The notes under the pieces were generated by a model that was not told the origin of the DNA, made no database searches, and saw only the letters and a program-made list of their open reading frames with translations. From Sedimentisphaerales bacterium (GTDB lineage Bacteria > Planctomycetota > Phycisphaerae > Sedimentisphaerales > SM23-30), in the NCBI GenBank assembly GCA_963663965.2, contig CAXXFK010000019.1:64001-128000 (forward strand): a stretch of 64,000 nt of DNA, given 5' to 3'. The translations under genes were made by a program, and so were the position numbers. Below are positions 14,209 through 62,412 of this stretch, piece by piece; positions within the stretch are counted from its first letter, which is position 1; each line of letters starts with the position of its first letter.

Positions 14209-14526
14209 AATTGATAGAATGAAATAAGGTCCAGCTATCGGTAACCATTCGAGAGTTATCCAGATTACGACATAGATTACCAACCGAACAGAAATTTGAA
14301 TAATCGCTTAAAAAACAAAGGTAGAGACTCTCTACCTTTGTTTTTAGGAAAATCTGGGCAGCCCACAGTTCTCGGTTTAAGCTTTCATAGTAAATTGCCG
14401 GCTTCCTCCCGACTGATTCAAAACGAACCCAATTTTCACCATTTATCTAACAATACCATCCAGACTACCTTACCTGTTACGCCAGTAAATTGCTGTATCA
14501 ATAGTCCATGCTTTCAGATTATCCAC

Positions 14527-26026: not shown

Positions 26027-27544
26027 TCAGGGCGTGGCGTCAGCGGTCTGGATCGCGTAGAGGTCGCGGCGCGTGGCGATGTATAAAACGCCATTGGCCG
26101 CGACGGGAGTACTGCTAATAGGGGCGTCAAATCGTACCTGGTCGAGGACCTGTTTTTCTTTACTGGCAGCCAGAATCCAGAATTCGCTGCGATGGGTGCC
26201 GACGTAGACTTTGCCGTCAGCAACCAGGGTTGAACCCCAGATTTCACCTTTGAGTTCGTGGGTCCAGAAGGGTTGGCCGGTTTCGGGATCGAGGCAATGG
26301 AGGGTACCGCCACAATCGCTCATGAACAGGAGACCATCGCGAATGGAGACCGAGGTACAGCAATGGTGATTCATGGGATAGGACCAGAGACGGGCGGAGT
26401 GGGTTATGTCGCCGGTCTGGGCGGCATCGACACAGATAAGCCAGGACTGGCGTTTGCCCCACCAGATATCGCCGCCGACGGTGACATAGATCCGGTTTTT
26501 ATAAAAGACCGGTGTACTCAGGATGTTGCTGGGGCCTTCCTGGCGGTTGCGATAATGACTGCGGACATCGACTTTTGGTGCAGTGGGATCGCAATCGAAG
26601 CGCCAGGCGAGTTCCAGGGGCAGAGGTGAAGCAGGCGAAAGACCGGGCTTCAGGGCTTTGAAGGTGTAGCAGATACCATCGCCGCCGCCGAAGCAAACCA
26701 AGCGCTGTCCGTTTACTTCGGAAAGCGCCGGTGAGGACCAAGTTGAGTGGAAGATATTGGGGCCGATTCGTTCGGTATCCCAGGCGACCAGATGGCCGGT
26801 GTGTTTATTGAGGACGATCAGACTGGGGGCATCGGGTTTTTGGATGGTTTGATGGGTGTTATCGACGCCGTTGCAGGTGTTTAGATAAAGGTAATCGCCA
26901 TCGATCAGGATGGAGGCATGAGCGGAGTCGTGGGGATAGGTGCCGGCGTCAGCCGGCATGTCGAAGAGCCAGATGATATCGGCGTCGAGTGGTGTAACGG
27001 AGAGGGGCTCATCATCGGCGGGTGTCATGTGGCGGCCTTCATCGAGGTAGGGGCCGTCGTTACCATTGGTCTGGCCGTTGAGGTCGAGACAGACCACTTC
27101 GAACCGGTTGGTGACTGTATAGGCGCGGTCGCCTTCGATGGTCGCAGGTGAACAGATGGAGATTTTGGGCCAGTCTTTATAGATATCGCCGGGAATGCGT
27201 GGGACGACCAGTTGCCAATTGAGATCGCCGTTGGCTTCGTTTAGACAGAGCAAAACGCCGCGGTCGCCTTTGTGGCGGGTGTCACGCGGTTTGGCGTTGT
27301 TCGCGCCGATGAATACTTTTCCGGCGGCGATGGTTGGGGTGCTGTAGGCGTCGGTGCCCAGTGAAACTTTCCATTTAATATCTTTGGTCAGGTCGATGTG
27401 TTGTGGCAGGCCGGTTTCGTCCGAGATCATGTTTCTGGACAGGGCTCGGCCCCATTGCGGGCTGTCCGCAGCGAAGGAGGGCAGGAGCCAGGAAAAACCG
27501 GTTATTATAGCTAACGCCATTGTGAGTCGATAGTTATGGTTCAT
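26027..27544 (-). CDS. Secreted PQQ-like beta-propeller protein
   Basis: Signal peptide, QWG...RNM.S.E, KW...LG...YSTP.IA.G, C.D..TG..W repeats, STPVAANG.LY. Confidence 0.85.
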   Translation of the reverse strand: MNHNYRLTMALAIITGFSWLLPSFAADSPQWGRALSRNMISDETGLPQHIDLTKDIKWKVSLGTDAYSTPTIAAGKVFIGANNAKPRDTRHKGDRGVLLCLNEANGDLNWQLVVPRIPGDIYKDWPKISICSPATIEGDRAYTVTNRFEVVCLDLNGQTNGNDGPYLDEGRHMTPADDEPLSVTPLDADIIWLFDMPADAGTYPHDSAHASILIDGDYLYLNTCNGVDNTHQTIQKPDAPSLIVLNKHTGHLVAWDTERIGPNIFHSTWSSPALSEVNGQRLVCFGGGDGICYTFKALKPGLSPASPLPLELAWRFDCDPTAPKVDVRSHYRNRQEGPSNILSTPVFYKNRIYVTVGGDIWWGKRQSWLICVDAAQTGDITHSARLWSYPMNHHCCTSVSIRDGLLFMSDCGGTLHCLDPETGQPFWTHELKGEIWGSTLVADGKVYVGTHRSEFWILAASKEKQVLDQVRFDAPISSTPVAANGVLYIATRRDLYAIQTADATP

Positions 27545-27684: not shown

Positions 27685-28524
27685 TTATTTCTTTTCCTCC
27701 TGGATGGGGATATCGGCCGGGGGTTTGGTGGGGATGCCGAGGGCGTGGAGGGCTTCTTCGCCGTTCTGCTGGGAGAACGTGTTGAGGGCTTCGTAGCGGT
27801 TGCAGGCGTAACTGAAGACCTGATCGTCAGTTACGCTGTGGTCTTTCATCAATTCGGGCAGGCGGTCTTTGATGTATTCGGGGGCCAATTTGGCTTCGCT
27901 GGGGTGTGTGGGGATTTTGGGGGGATCGGGGATGTGGATGCGGGGCAGGTTGGGAAATGGGTACTCGGGTGGGTAAACATTGGGTTCGTTTGGAACGGGT
28001 TGTAACTGAAGTTGCTGAAGGAGGTTGAGTTTGGCCTGGAAGATTCGATTGAGGTGGGCTTCGTAGCGGGCCAGGCAGTTGAAGGCGGGGGTTTCGAGGG
28101 TGAAGGCCGTGCCGACTTCGTTGTGGCGGGGAAGATAGATACTTGAGTGGGCGAAGGGTTGGTCGATGACGGTGTCTTTGCGGATTTCTTCGTTGGTGAG
28201 GCGGAGTTTATAGACGCGGGCGTCGATCATTTCGGCTTCGATGCGGCCGAGGCGTTCAAGGCGCCAGGCGGCCGAGACGATCTGGTCGGCGATGTGGCGC
28301 TGGAGATAAGTCGTTGGTTTGAGGTCTTGTAACAATGCGGCGCGGAATTCGAGGTAGGTGAGTTCGGACTCGCCGGGGACAATGAGGTGGGCGGGGTCCT
28401 GGCCGCTGAGGCCGTGTTTGATGGCATTCTTTGATGAGATGGCCTTGCCCTCGGGGGTTTTTGGGCCGGTGGATTTCTGGGCGTTACGACGGTTGGCGCG
28501 TAGTCTTCTTAGTGACGATGACAT
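27685..28524 (-). CDS. Uncharacterised protein of the ANRRNAQKSTGP-T-EGK...N..KHGL type
   Basis: AGGAGG RBS, N-terminal ANRRNAQKSTGPKTPEGKAISSKNAIKHGL, W.L.R..R.E, L.RYE..L.R, NEPN, Pro-rich tail. Confidence 0.8.
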   Translation of the reverse strand: MSSSLRRLRANRRNAQKSTGPKTPEGKAISSKNAIKHGLSGQDPAHLIVPGESELTYLEFRAALLQDLKPTTYLQRHIADQIVSAAWRLERLGRIEAEMIDARVYKLRLTNEEIRKDTVIDQPFAHSSIYLPRHNEVGTAFTLETPAFNCLARYEAHLNRIFQAKLNLLQQLQLQPVPNEPNVYPPEYPFPNLPRIHIPDPPKIPTHPSEAKLAPEYIKDRLPELMKDHSVTDDQVFSYACNRYEALNTFSQQNGEEALHALGIPTKPPADIPIQEEKK

Positions 28525-28553
28525 GGTGGGTACCTCCTTGGTTGGGAATTATT

Positions 28554-28592
28554 AATTACGAATTACGAGTTACGAGTTACGAATTACGAATT
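28554..28592. repeat. Tandem heptamer block A(A/G)TTACG x5
   Basis: aattacg aattacg agttacg agttacg aattacg aatt. Confidence 0.9.
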
Positions 28593-28602
28593 TAAAATTG
28601 TG

Positions 28603-29410
28603 GTATCCGCCAAGTGGCGGATGTTCGTTTTATTTTTAGTTAAGCTCAATTCTTGGTTGAGGTTAGGGCGATATTTTTTCATGTTGGGTTTGTTTCGTTT
28701 TATGTTGGTATTCGCTGCGCTCATGGCTGGTTTTATCTTTCGCCTCCGGTGCGAAATCCTGCAGGTACGCCTCTGCGAGGCGTGGGTTTAAAATTTTCTA
28801 CGCTGGTTCGGGTATTCCCGCCAATGAATTGGCGGGCTATGCGCTTTTGATCTCTCCGAGATATTATTTGTATCCGCCATTCGGCGGATGATTTTTTTAT
28901 TTTTCGTTAAGCTCGTTTCATTGTTGGGGTTAGGGCAATATTTTAACCCATTGGCTTTGTTTCGTTTTCTGTTGGTATTCGCTGCGCTCATGGTAAGTTT
29001 TATCTATCTCTTTTGCGAGATATCCTGTCGGTACGCCTCTGCGAGGCGAGGGTTTAAAATTTCAATCTCATGATCGTTACCCAGGGTGGCGCTCGTCCCG
29101 TTATACGGGATTCGCTCTACCCTGGGCTGTTTTATGCCGGCCCGTTGGGCCGCTTTGGGTATCCGCCTGCGGCGGATGTTCGTATAATTTTGGTTAAGTT
29201 TCGTTCGTTGTTCAGGTTAGAGTGATATTTTTTCCTGTTGGCTTTGTTTCGTTTTGTGTTGGTATTCGCTGCTCTCATGTTAGTTTTATCTTTCGCCTCC
29301 GGTGCGAAATCCTGTCGGTACGCCTCTACGAGGCGTGGGTTTAAAATTAAATTTCAATCTCTATCCGGGGCCTTACGGACCCCGGCTAGTTACTTTCGGC
29401 TTTTCAAGCC
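28603..29410. repeat. Array of three ~190-bp direct repeats (28603-28795, 28870-29061, 29159-29348), each followed by a different REP-like hairpin element
   Basis: Each unit reads GTATCCGCC-loop-GGCGGATG...TTAAG...GGTTAG...TTGG(G/C)TTTGTTTCGTTTT.TGTTGGTATTCGCTGC.CTCATG...GGTACGCCTCT.CGAGGCG.GGGTTTAAAATT. Confidence 0.93.
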
Positions 29411-29839
29411 TTTTATGGCTGGGTTGTCGGGTTGTGTCATATTTGTATATCCCATTTCATTCGTATTGTTAAAACAGCCAAAATAAATTGGCTGGTTGGG
29501 CCTGGTTCGTACGCTATCGCACCAAGCCAAGAATGCACCCATAAGCTGCGCTTGAAGGCGCCACGGTTTATGCGCATAAAATCTCTGTAGGCGTGGCCGG
29601 TTGGGTGTGGGGCACACCGGGGGTTCGGGGGCTATTGGGGCGACTTTGGGATTATAGACTGAGTTGTTGTATTAGTCAAAACAAATATTATGTTTTTAAT
29701 TTAAATAACATAAAATTTAAGGTATTATGTTTTTGTGGTAGTTTAGTTTTAGAGGTGAAATTCAGCTGACCTATTCTTAATGGTTTATTAGTTATAGATT
29801 TATGTTGATTTAAGGCGTTGTCAACAAAATAATATACTC

Positions 29840-31383
29840 GTAACATTTTAGCCAACTGAAGCAAATTTTCTAAAATTGTCAAGAAAACGCTTGCGCCCGT
29901 GTTTGTTTTGTGTATGCTTAACAAGCATGAGCATGCATAGTAAAGCCCAACAGATTCTGGCCAACCTGAACGGACCGATGACGGCCGAGCAGGCGCGGGC
30001 GATATTTGCCTTGGGTGAAGAGGCGGTGGTGTTTGCTTTGCTGAAATTGTCGTCGCTTCAGACCGTTTCGCCCGCTTCCACTACGGGGGCGTTGGGGCCT
30101 CACGATCCCTCGTGCTCTTCGGGACAGAAACCGCCGTTTGTCAAAGACAATCTCTCGGACAAGCGGCGTAAGAAACTCAAGGGACGCAAAGCGGGTCATC
30201 CCGGCGTTCGCCGACCGGCTCCTGACCGGGTCGACCGGACCGAAGCGCATCGGGCCGACTGTTGTCCGGATTGCGGCGGCCACCTGAAGCGCTGTGCCGA
30301 GACCCGCGAACGACTGATCGAAGACCTGCCCGCCTCGACCCGCATTGAAGTCGTTCGCCATATCATTCATCGCGACTGGTGTTCCAACTGCCGCAAGATG
30401 GTTGAACCGGTGATTGACGCCGCTCTGCCACGCGCCACCGTTGGCAATGGGATGCTGGTGTTGTGCGCCTGGCTGCATTTTGCCCTGGGCAACACGATTT
30501 CGCAGATTCTGGCGGTGTTCAATTACCATTTGCAATTTAAAATGTCCGGCGGCGGCCTGGTGCAGATGTGGCACCGGCTGGCGACCATTCTGGAAGCCTG
30601 GTACGATGAAATTCTGGCTGACATTCAGAAGGTCGGCGCCTTGTTTGCCGACGAGACGGGCTGGCGGATGGATGGCAAAACCCATTGGCTCTGGTGCTTT
30701 ACCAGCGCGACGGCCACCATCTTTACTATCGAGCAATCGCGGGCCGGGCCGGTGGTGCTGGCGTTTATTAAAGAATGGTTCGACGGCGTGTTGGTGAGCG
30801 ACTTCTGGTACGCTTACAATGTGCTGGATTGCGCCAAACAAAAATGCCTGGTGCACCTGTTGCGCGAGTTGGAGCGGGTCAAAAAATATAAGAACTGCGA
30901 CAGCGACTGGCCCCGGTTTGGCAAATCGCTCAAGCGGTTGCTGCGCGATGCCATCCGTCTGAGCAAGCGGCAGGCGGACCTGGAACCGGCCATCTACCAG
31001 CGGCGTTGCGCCCTCATCGAAAAACGACTGCAAGCGATTCTGGATCATGCCTGGTCCCATCCCGATGCCAAGCGGCTGATAAAACGGCTCAAACGTCATC
31101 AAGCCGAACTGTTTACCTTTTTGTATCATCCGGAAGTGCCCTTCGACAATAACTTCGGCGAACGCAGTATCCGTGGCGCAGTGATCATGCGCAAAAACAG
31201 CTACAACAACCGCAGCCCGCGGGGCGCCCGCATCCAATCCATCCTGATGAGCGTGTTCTACACCCTCAAACAGCGTGGTCTCAATCCGGTCGCCGCTGTC
31301 AAAAAAGCACTGCAAATCTATCTCCAAACGGGTAAATTACCTACTTTAGCCCAATTACCTGCTTCACTTGGCTAAAATCTTAC
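29840..31383 (+). mobile_element. IS66-family insertion sequence (single-ORF, ISBst12-like organisation)
   Basis: IRL GTAACATTTTAGCCAA (29840) and IRR TTGGCTAAAATCTTAC (ends 31383), one mismatch. 8-bp TSD ATATACTC at 29832-29839 and 31384-31391. Confidence 0.95.
29927..31375 (+). CDS. IS66-family DDE transposase
   Basis: G.K.GH.G, CPDCG and CSNC zinc finger, ADETGW, WLW, LVSD...Y, QKCLVHLLR, DNN.GER.IR. Confidence 0.93.
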   Translation: MSMHSKAQQILANLNGPMTAEQARAIFALGEEAVVFALLKLSSLQTVSPASTTGALGPHDPSCSSGQKPPFVKDNLSDKRRKKLKGRKAGHPGVRRPAPDRVDRTEAHRADCCPDCGGHLKRCAETRERLIEDLPASTRIEVVRHIIHRDWCSNCRKMVEPVIDAALPRATVGNGMLVLCAWLHFALGNTISQILAVFNYHLQFKMSGGGLVQMWHRLATILEAWYDEILADIQKVGALFADETGWRMDGKTHWLWCFTSATATIFTIEQSRAGPVVLAFIKEWFDGVLVSDFWYAYNVLDCAKQKCLVHLLRELERVKKYKNCDSDWPRFGKSLKRLLRDAIRLSKRQADLEPAIYQRRCALIEKRLQAILDHAWSHPDAKRLIKRLKRHQAELFTFLYHPEVPFDNNFGERSIRGAVIMRKNSYNNRSPRGARIQSILMSVFYTLKQRGLNPVAAVKKALQIYLQTGKLPTLAQLPASLG

Positions 31384-31489
31384 ATATACTCTGTGTTATA
31401 TAAAGACCCGTTGATCGAATCATAGTTACTGTGTTTTATTATAATCAGAGCGATATCAATCATGCCCATTTAATGAACACGGAAAGAAT

Positions 31490-61701: not shown

Positions 61702-62154
61702 ATGGCCTGTTCTTATGTTAGTTGCTATATACATTATATTTTCAGTACAAAATACCATCGTTGCAGTATCACTCAAGATATTAAATCGAGGCTCTGGCAA
61801 TATTTTGGTGGTATTGCCAAAGAGAATAAGATGACATTATTAGAAGCTAATGGCACTAATGATCATGTTCATTTATTGGTGATTTTACCAGCGACCCTTT
61901 CGATTGCCAAGGCGATTCAATATCTAAAGGGTGGATCATCCAAATGGATACACGATCAATTTCCGCATTCGATGCAATTTTCGTGGCAGGAAGGTTATGG
62001 CGCTTTTTCTGTGAGTCGTTCCGGCGTTGATAGAACAATAGAATATATTCGAAATCAGGAAACTCATCATCGAACCATGACTTTTGAAGAGGAGTATGTC
62101 CGATTTCTTGATAAATATGGAGTTACCTATGAGATGCAGTATGTATTCGATTAA
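61702..62154 (+). mobile_element. tnpA: IS200/IS605-family Y1 HUH transposase (TnpA/RAYT-like), no tnpB
   Basis: HYIFSTK.R, DHVHLL (HUH), KG.SSKW, F.WQEGYGAFSVS, YI.NQ..HH (catalytic Y), F.EEY..FL. Confidence 0.92.
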
Positions 62155-62155
62155 T

Positions 62156-62412
62156 ACTTTCGTCCCTACGGGACTTACTCGTTCCAGGGGGGGCCATAAA
62201 CCCGCAGTTAAAACTGCGGGCTATTAACTTATGTCCCTAGCGGGACATTTTTGGGAATGTTCGGATTACCGAATACCCGCCGTTAAAACGGCGGGCTACG
62301 CACTTTCGTCCCTACGGGACTTACTCGTTTCAAGGGGGGCCACCCGCAGTTAAAACTGCGGGCTATTAACTTATGTCCCTGACGGGACATTTTTTGGTCC
62401 GCCTGCGGCGGA
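62156..62412. repeat. REP cluster downstream of tnpA
   Basis: Three copies of CCCGC..TTAAAAC..GCGGG-CT-10 nt-GTCCC.(3-4).GGGAC (62201, 62276, 62343). 62156-62250 is nearly duplicated at 62302-62392. Ends with TCCGCCTGCGGCGGA. Confidence 0.9.

Follow-up and report, generated by a model that had tools for sequence, protein, structure and literature searches.

The pac site of a phage often lies inside terS. P22 TerS recognises a 12-bp pac together with pseudo-pac sites in the chromosome (PMC10996546), and SaPI TerS pairs with the TerL of a phage, so that SaPI pac sites are recognised (PMC6687093). The TerS of RcGTA is described as having no specific DNA-binding domain and as packaging randomly (PMC6854486). 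Here we analysed a stretch of 64,000 nucleotides from a Sedimentisphaerales genome (hereafter the window), which very probably holds a mobile element carrying a gene derived from TerS and a DNA site cognate to it. A literature search, with subscription journals and bioRxiv supplements outside its scope, returned no description of the family, of the motif (AAACGAACCCAA) or of the element, and the element is apparently real, widespread and undescribed.

Results

The gene and its locus

The gene that a sequence-only reading of the window had picked out by its N-terminus is an open reading frame at 27685..28524 on the minus strand, encodes a TerS-like protein of 279 aa and belongs to a set of 26 full-length genomic copies. 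The protein was modelled as all-helical (pLDDT 76), with a confident core at about residues 1-175, no strands and a Pro-rich tail of low confidence. Searches with it gave no match in Pfam, NCBIfam or PHROG and nothing significant in the PDB by sequence, and the ESM Atlas returned unnamed acidobacterial clusters only. Foldseek (PDB, BFVD) and VIA-wide searches yielded only generic helical bundles (best Z 7.9), with no solved TerS and no enzyme fold; such generic matches do not imply a new fold. The sequence-only reading had taken the product for a nucleic-acid-binding protein, and no confident match to an unrelated enzyme fold appeared in the structure searches.

Upstream of the gene lie a ribosome-binding site, AGGAGG (28533..28538, minus strand), and a heptamer tandem repeat (28546..28592). 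The latter had been placed 30 bp from the gene; it is present, but about 22 nt from the ATG, and is an accessory feature found in 3 of the 26 copies. The array reported upstream of the gene proved real, with three units of about 270-290 nt and the motif once per unit in one orientation (28684, 28951 and 29238). Unit 1 (28603..28795), unit 2 (28870..29061) and unit 3 (29157..29348) are all on the minus strand and carry the site, 12-mer-N18-TAAC, at 28662-28695, 28929-28962 and 29216-29249, respectively. REP-like hairpins belong to unit 1 (28605-28622 and 28767-28783), and a long REP-like hairpin (29080..29126) lies between units 2 and 3, in the spacer. Rfam gave a single sub-threshold match, Acido-Lenti-1, at 29120-29152.

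Next to the array are a hairpin-rich 5' leader (29349..29650, minus strand), common as a mosaic to most copies, and a putative sigma-70-type promoter, TTGACT-N17-TATAAT (29651..29679, minus strand; a consensus match only). The genome has 41 occurrences of an extended form of this promoter, nearly all at an element of the window family or at a second TerS-like family. Whereas the element had first been taken to end with unit 3, it extends to this promoter and on to a left end split by an insertion sequence. The 35-bp left-end motif, which also flanks RAYT-like HUH transposase genes in the genome, has its inner part at 29817..29839 (minus strand) and its outer part at 31384..31405 (minus strand; sequence read directly). 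The outer part was displaced by an element at 29840..31383 (plus strand) that we take to be IS66-like from its transposase; this element sits in the left-end motif with an 8-bp target duplication (ATATACTC) and is outside the system. Among gene copies in public contigs, homology stops at 27685.

The 12-mer motif and its extended site

The 12-mer AAACRAASCCAA (four variants) occurs 258 times in the genome, compared with 6.7 expected under a Markov model of 6-letter words, which bears out the claim that the motif is found elsewhere in the chromosome. Within the window element it lies at 27980, 28684, 28951 and 29238, and elsewhere in the window at 27231 and 14432; the 9-mer used in the sequence-only reading has 8 matches in the window. 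The 12-mer is non-palindromic, and the 258 sites form 116 clusters, in which nearly all sites share orientation. TAAC follows exactly 18 nt downstream in 120 of the 258 sites and TATC in 14 more, and the array site reads 12-mer, N18, TAAC, about N18, TTA. In other genomes the spacer from 12-mer to TAAC peaks at 23 nt. An integron attC or dif-like reading of the TAAC half was dropped on inspection by eye, with no integrase near. Reading the region as an IHF site was also set aside: it fits other genomes (23/121 vs 0-4 shuffled) and is weak in the window genome, where matches numbered 3/80 at gene copies and 16/138 at other sites vs 3-9 shuffled.

Inside the gene, the 12-mer takes the form AAACGAACCCAA (27980..27991, minus strand), reads NEPN directly past the conserved domain and is a candidate pac-like site; it is without the downstream TAAC half. 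The motif had been said to occur twice in the gene. The NEPN copy stands, but the other, AGCGAAGCCAA (27890..27900, minus strand; codons S-E-A-K), is a partial look-alike rather than a full 12-mer and is unsupported as an independent site. It has 30 matches genome-wide, and because SEAK is read in all 26 gene copies, most of these are presumably the gene itself. The NEPN codons, marked out from the start for their synonymous positions, do not vary at any of these four in the 26 copies. Inside the in-gene 12-mer a single change was seen, from Pro to Ala, and it produces the alternative variant that the motif permits. Immediately outside the 12-mer, the first base is T in 22 copies and C in 4. 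With a background synonymous invariance of 97/226 codons, the chance calculated by hand is about 0.43^4 = 0.03, and the invariance is no more than suggestive.

A dispersed population of copies

The genome, a MAG with 5.4% contamination, holds 26 full-length copies that are 91-97% identical to the window copy, and 2 fragments. All 26 are 840 nt long with one stop and occupy 26 different intergenic sites, and their neighbours look like ordinary host genes by their sequences. The gene had been regarded as the single effector beside the array; an apparently undescribed motif-associated system was indeed found, but as a dispersed element of 26 copies and not as one locus. Read on the gene strand, the unit comprises the 35-bp left-end motif, TTGAC-N17-TATAAT, the leader, AGGAGG, the ORF and a variable 3' hairpin. 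It measures 1.5-2.5 kb and has a single ORF between promoter and 3' hairpin, and no integrase, replication, repressor or excision genes were seen in it. The promoter lies within 2.5 kb in 21 of the 26 copies; the leader (0.5-1.5 kb) is hairpin-rich with a variable number of motif units, and the 3' hairpin, present in most copies and variable, ends about 80 nt past the stop. This right-end hairpin is different from the RAYT-associated left-end motif. Neither terminal inverted repeats nor target duplications were seen by eye at the 26 copies, whose ends are eroded.

Pairwise nucleotide identity of the 26 copies is 89-96%. The pN/pS ratio was 0.11 overall and 0.05 in residues 1-45, and the copies are under strong purifying selection. 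Four-gamete violations were observed in 33% of site pairs less than 10 nt apart and in 48-58% of farther pairs; since all four allele combinations occur at many site pairs, the copies recombine freely, and the recombination tracts are very short. In contigs of run X1, summed depth reached about 50-150 over gene and array vs 2.4-5.4 in the flanks; this run is possibly the source sample, and neither the depth excess nor its end of homology at 27685 counts as independent support. The contig joints lie between array units and match the known mosaic of other copies.

Association with RAYT-like transposases

Eight near-identical RAYT-like HUH genes flanked by the 35-bp motif are present in the window genome, and a 73% identical relative of them matches PF01797. 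The motif was found at the left end of 13 of 26 window-family copies, compared with 2 of 15 second-family copies and 1 of 200 random windows. In other genomes, GTAG-type hairpins near the gene numbered 33 in 84.8 kb vs 6 in 68.2 kb (4.4-fold) and occurred at 24 of 80 loci; Y1 transposases were detected in 5/5 genomes tested and also in 6/14 control genomes. A RAYT-type transposase may be the route to new sites, which leaves the terminase link unexplained. The RAYT-like protein ends in RTNPI, which proved not to be motif-encoded, and reading the left-end dyad as an SOS box was unsupported in a weak test, in which recA was not located.

The family across genomes and its coupling to the motif

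A word search retrieved 950 homologues, and the family amounts to 35,972 clusters at 50% identity (E up to 1e-10). A Pfam scan of 120 members revealed no Pfam family common to more than two of them and no PF01797. The 80 best loci from other genomes came from Planctomycetota, Acidobacteriota, Alphaproteobacteria and others, and the family is frequent among Acidobacteria, Planctomycetota and Alphaproteobacteria of soil and sediment. The motif core was present in 51 of these 80 loci, right behind the conserved domain, and 100 of the 105 motif matches lay at +250 to +1500 nt from the gene start. None was found upstream of -250 in 179 kb, and the upstream array is peculiar to the window genome. 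In some Acidobacteria the motif is reversed relative to the gene (9 of the 105 matches). Of 259 homologue tails, 108 contained motif-encoded peptides, with each of the three frames and the reverse direction represented, vs 7.7 for shuffled tails; a motif read in every frame and in reverse is conserved as DNA. The association of gene and motif extends across phyla, and the family is multicopy in several of them.

At least 10 copies were counted in 11 of 47 gene-positive genomes, and at least 60 in one; the 47 were drawn from the genomes behind the 80 loci, with most apparent close kin of the window genome and repeats omitted. Distribution is patchy, with the gene in 8 of 40 relatives. It had been suggested that gene presence would go with genome-wide motif counts. 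In the 40 relatives it did so, with a motif count of at least 17 in 4 of 8 gene-positive vs 0 of 32 gene-negative genomes (Fisher p 8e-4, for a post hoc threshold and kin that are not independent), and one relative, G030, has 2 genes and 176 motif sites. The other four gene-positive relatives showed no motif expansion. Among 120 further Planctomycetota the sole motif expansion was in G149 (32 sites vs 0 control), a 91% complete, 920-contig MAG with no gene match among 59 candidates scored. Another genome, G100, has the gene and no exact motif. G149 and the four unexpanded gene-positive relatives indicate that the gene-motif link is strong but not one-to-one.

Link to terminases

Among 37 loci in viral contigs, most match residues 8-40 only and about 3-4 are full-length. 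The viral ORFs with the N-terminal match precede genes of 500-620 aa, of which 5 of 18 match PHROG terL (E up to 1e-8) and one more matches Terminase_6C, and 6 of 16 scanned viral upstream ORFs match PHROG terS. HHalign of the family with viral TerS-slot proteins gave 98-99% over 43-73 columns, corresponding to the N-terminal module; without the N-terminal motif it gave at most 7% against three viral TerS groups, and the C-terminal hairpin was unalignable. Phage small terminases with the STGP...KHG segment include PHROG 1889, 9231 and 509, the HGGxSTG domain NF041373 and TerS_not_xtmA NF040601.

Four of five high-copy genomes tested for TerL had matches, up to 11 per genome (G180, 11; G191, 5), and G177, which has 19 copies, had no phrog_2 TerL match. 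We fetched 17 TerL loci (8/11 in G180, 5/5 in G191, 2/3 in G183 and 2/4 in G163); the family gene was adjacent to TerL in 10 of these and absent from the other 7. It was directly upstream of TerL on the same strand in 7 of the 8 G180 loci, and in G191 downstream in 2 and divergent in 1. Three full-length partner TerLs were scanned and matched PF03237, with ATPase and nuclease motifs that look intact; several others are each broken into two ORFs. The small-terminase resemblance first noticed by eye thus gained substance, in that the N-terminal module matches viral TerS-slot proteins and full-length members adjoin TerL genes.

Metagenomes were scanned by the partner TerL clade alone. In the best 80 of 566 loci, a few of which look duplicated, the family gene was adjacent in 30 (10 tandem, 18 divergent and 2 downstream), and adjacency was 21/41 among TerL loci with at least 1.3 kb of upstream DNA. 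Five queries (blastp, short flanks) detected no portal gene near these 80 loci. Among 80 viral TerL loci, 74 of which represent distant TerLs only, the family gene was adjacent in none. The partner clade was absent from the window genome and from the 3-kb flanks of 80 gene-chosen genome loci. The window copy itself has no adjacent TerL, and no TerL adjoins the single-copy homologue in family f36. The model PF17289 was rejected for a TerL census: it matched 13/47 genomes only and missed the window genome's own TerL, and is therefore too blunt. These results indicate that the family is linked to one distinct TerL clade.

Host packaging operons and a second TerS-like family

A second multicopy family in the window genome (about 15 loci, 261 aa), mostly with two motif copies 183 nt apart, has the same 12-mer and promoter as the window family; its protein returned nothing from the ESM Atlas. 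One copy directly precedes a 489-aa TerL, and a further 12-mer follows the TerL. This TerL is present in 33 of 41 genomes and essentially single-copy, in an operon with a repressor, HTH, ATPase, ParB and GNAT-like genes (the last by reading) and a small gene matching PHROG terS. HHalign related the second family to this small gene (73.8%, E 3e-5) and to other operon genes at no more than 0.5%, and found no match between the small gene and the window family. A second-family copy in the TerS slot of this TerL means that two different TerS-slot families with the same 12-mer were multiplied in one genome.

A separate portal-scaffold-capsid operon, with an SPP1-type portal, was present in 5/5 genomes examined, and the major capsid protein gene in 32 of 41 genomes. 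Models of the HK97-type portal, Mu-type portal and HK97 capsid had no match in the window genome, and the Mu-type portal search matched no control genome either. Two acidobacterial high-copy genomes have a TerL-to-P22-coat head operon. The host TerL and head operons appear to be domesticated, GTA-like, order-wide and vertically kept, with vertical descent suggested by their single-copy state and order-wide presence.

Discussion

We propose that the window locus is a selfish packaging-hijack element with a candidate pac-like site, relying on borrowed capsids, and give this reading a probability of about one half. The gene product would be a TerS-like DNA-recognition protein and the 12-mer its pac-like site, and the element would come in three forms, namely a TerS-like gene with a headless TerL, a solo gene with the motif as in the window, and motif-only mini-elements. 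The protein would bind the site and recruit TerL, either its own partner or, in the window genome, the host GTA-like TerL; given the absence of the partner clade from the window genome and from the flanks of the 80 genome loci, use of a resident TerL is an assumption. Packaging into borrowed capsids would begin at the element, and the element and its flanks would be transferred at a rate far above that of average DNA. Recipients would acquire the element via recombination in the flanks, and incoming fragments would recombine with resident copies to give the mosaic. Packaging drive alone leads to spread in a population and not to the creation of new loci; new chromosomal sites would be rarer, possibly arising via a RAYT-type transposase, the end motif of which is present in many copies.

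In favour of packaging hijack we counted the dispersal, selection, recombination, motif coupling, the N-terminal module shared with PHROG TerS proteins and with genes directly preceding terL, TerL linkage, the host TerL and head operons, the multiplied second TerS-slot family and, as a precedent, the SaPI TerS that redirects a helper TerL to its own pac site. Counted against it were the core without a viral TerS match and the fold searches without a solved TerS, the divergent order of 18 of 30 metagenome pairs compared with the tandem terS-terL usual in phages, G177 without a TerL match, the motif without the gene in G149, the unexpanded relatives and G100, and the reversed motif in some Acidobacteria.

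Part of this evidence bears on other accounts. The 35-bp RAYT-flanking motif at the left end of 13/26 copies vs 1/200 random windows, the 4.4-fold enrichment of GTAG-type hairpins and the Y1 transposases in 5/5 genomes would fit an element that is REP/RAYT cargo moved by a single-strand HUH route, with the TerS-like gene as a passenger and the 12-mer as, for example, an autoregulatory operator. Cargo status would leave unexplained why the 12-mer is common to two unrelated TerS-slot families, why one TerL clade goes with the family and why the protein is intact in every copy, and Y1 transposases also occur in 6/14 controls while the end motif is missing in 13/15 second-family copies. We consider it rather unlikely as a full account; it is partly compatible with packaging hijack, of which it can be the site-creating step. 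The RNase H-like fold of the TerL nuclease is akin to that of DDE transposases. Mobility without capsids, in which the TerS-like protein would target the TerL nuclease to the motif and repair from another copy would move or homogenise the element, in the manner of a homing endonuclease or a transposase made from terminase, would suit this nuclease (RNase H-like by Pfam name), the lack of a portal match near the 80 metagenome TerL loci with five queries, the multicopy TerL of high-copy genomes (11 in G180, 5 in G191) and the very short tracts over which the 26 copies recombine. We judge it unlikely, as inspection of the 26 copies by eye revealed neither terminal repeats nor target duplications, several partner TerLs consist of two separate ORFs and the examined genomes hold head operons too.

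Purifying selection across the 26 copies, with a consensus promoter (found in 21/26) and an RBS, would also be expected of a host-selected anti-phage decoy, in which extra TerS-like subunits and decoy sites would poison the phage packaging motor and copies would be kept for dosage; a satellite reportedly interferes with the packaging motor. Dozens of unrelated loci and motif-only derivatives, however, resemble selfish spread, the neighbours are ordinary host genes by sequence and the distribution is patchy (8/40 relatives), so that a decoy seems improbable to us. An assembly or binning artefact, for which the 5.4% contamination of the MAG might speak, is very improbable: copies are embedded in long contigs and differ in their flanks, depth in run X1, possibly the source sample, is about 50-150 over gene and array vs 2.4-5.4 in the flanks, and the multicopy state recurs in many other genomes.

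Packaging hijack, the reading that we prefer, would provide an identity and a testable mechanism for one of the larger unannotated protein families. Theory treats GTA packaging as random and selfless, and a selfish TerS with its own site would be the cheat that such random packaging invites. The window genome offers 258 predicted packaging start sites, and its 26 freely recombining, selected copies are an unusual gene population inside one chromosome. More tentatively, and at somewhat less than even odds, the elements may form a very large unnamed mobile-element class built from packaging parts alone (TerS-like genes, an optional orphan TerL and pac-like sites), driving on GTAs or phages or moving by the terminase nuclease, with hundreds of motif sites that would bias GTA packaging to fixed hot spots.

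By analogy with SaPIs and PICIs, the element-encoded TerS would redirect the TerL of another to its own pac and to chromosomal look-alikes. Unlike them, the window element lacks integrase, replication, repressor and excision genes, and whereas a SaPI or PICI is one island at an att site, the window family consists of dozens of dispersed copies per genome, has motif-only derivatives and includes members with their own TerL; the window element is not a PICI. With phage TerS it shares a basic N-terminal module (STGP...KHG), a predicted all-helical architecture, adjacency to terL within the family and a 12-bp candidate site, but the family is mostly without terL, often divergent from it and, with full-length matches at only about 3-4 of 37 viral loci, not in phage genomes. 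As in GTAs, packaging and head genes of the window genome are single-copy and order-wide, the TerL operon lying apart from the portal-capsid operon; unlike that of RcGTA, its TerS-like genes carry a recurring site and are multiplied, which would bias packaging. Some relatives (G030) combine a small number of genes with numerous dispersed non-coding repeats, and this, like the intergenic location and the hairpin-rich DNA, recalls REP/REPIN-RAYT systems. In contrast to these, however, the window gene has no Y1_Tnp match, the 12-mer is non-palindromic and one-way in clusters, and in the window genome no part is more multiplied than the gene.

Domesticated terminase and head operons

A TerL operon comprising a repressor, an HTH gene, an ATPase, a GNAT-like gene, a TerS slot and TerL was located on contig C30 of the Sedimentisphaerales genome (C30:122209-124448 and 128268-131761; loci L139 and L181). 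This operon is domesticated and, in this genome, split by host genes. The gene in its TerS slot has about 15 dispersed copies, and the 12-mer, a candidate pac-like site, occurs on them. The same contig encodes a portal, a scaffold-like protein and an SU10-type major capsid protein, together with more co-oriented unannotated genes (C30:195449-205170; L175:9450-19171), and these head genes are conserved order-wide. Genome-wide, third codon positions are extremely skewed towards C over G in both TerS-like families, TerL, the TerL operon and the RAYT-like genes. Some host genes also show this bias.

A further operon, consisting of TerL, a portal-sized gene, a small gene and a P22-type coat gene (L219:4435-8762 and L224:4349-8621), is common to two Acidobacteriota genomes and is possibly a second domesticated particle system.

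Mobile elements and dispersed motif sites

The RAYT-like HUH genes (C33:124407-125354 and 7 further copies) are flanked by a 35-bp motif, which also stands alone ahead of many host genes. Its end is the hexamer TTGACA, with which it could form hybrid promoters. In the window, an IS66-like element with an 8-bp duplication (29840-31383) lies within the left-end motif of the TerS-like element; more copies are present on C31 and C10, and the leaders of several family-gene copies contain other IS types. Also in the window, a Y1 (IS200-type) transposase match adjoins a 67-bp tandem hairpin repeat (61714-62058 and 62200-62394).

Two more 12-mers occur in the window (14421-14432 and 27231-27242): one is solitary and intergenic, and the other, within a neighbouring host gene, is probably a chance occurrence. 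In another Planctomycetota genome (G149), where the TerS-like family gene was not detectable, the motif has expanded to 32 sites; another TerS-like family may drive this expansion.

Relatives of the TerS-like family

Nine metagenome loci of the TerL clade linked to the TerS-like family (L232, L260, L263, L265, L271, L284, L288, L290 and L307) share another small neighbour gene family in place of the TerS-like family. A homologue of the latter (f36; L182-L187) is single-copy and lacks the STGP/KHG module in 6/6 genomes, and is possibly a domesticated member. Directly downstream of it, in five of the six, lies an ACP-FabZ-FabF-FabF-oxidoreductase-radical SAM cluster, which we take to be the anammox ladderane cluster.
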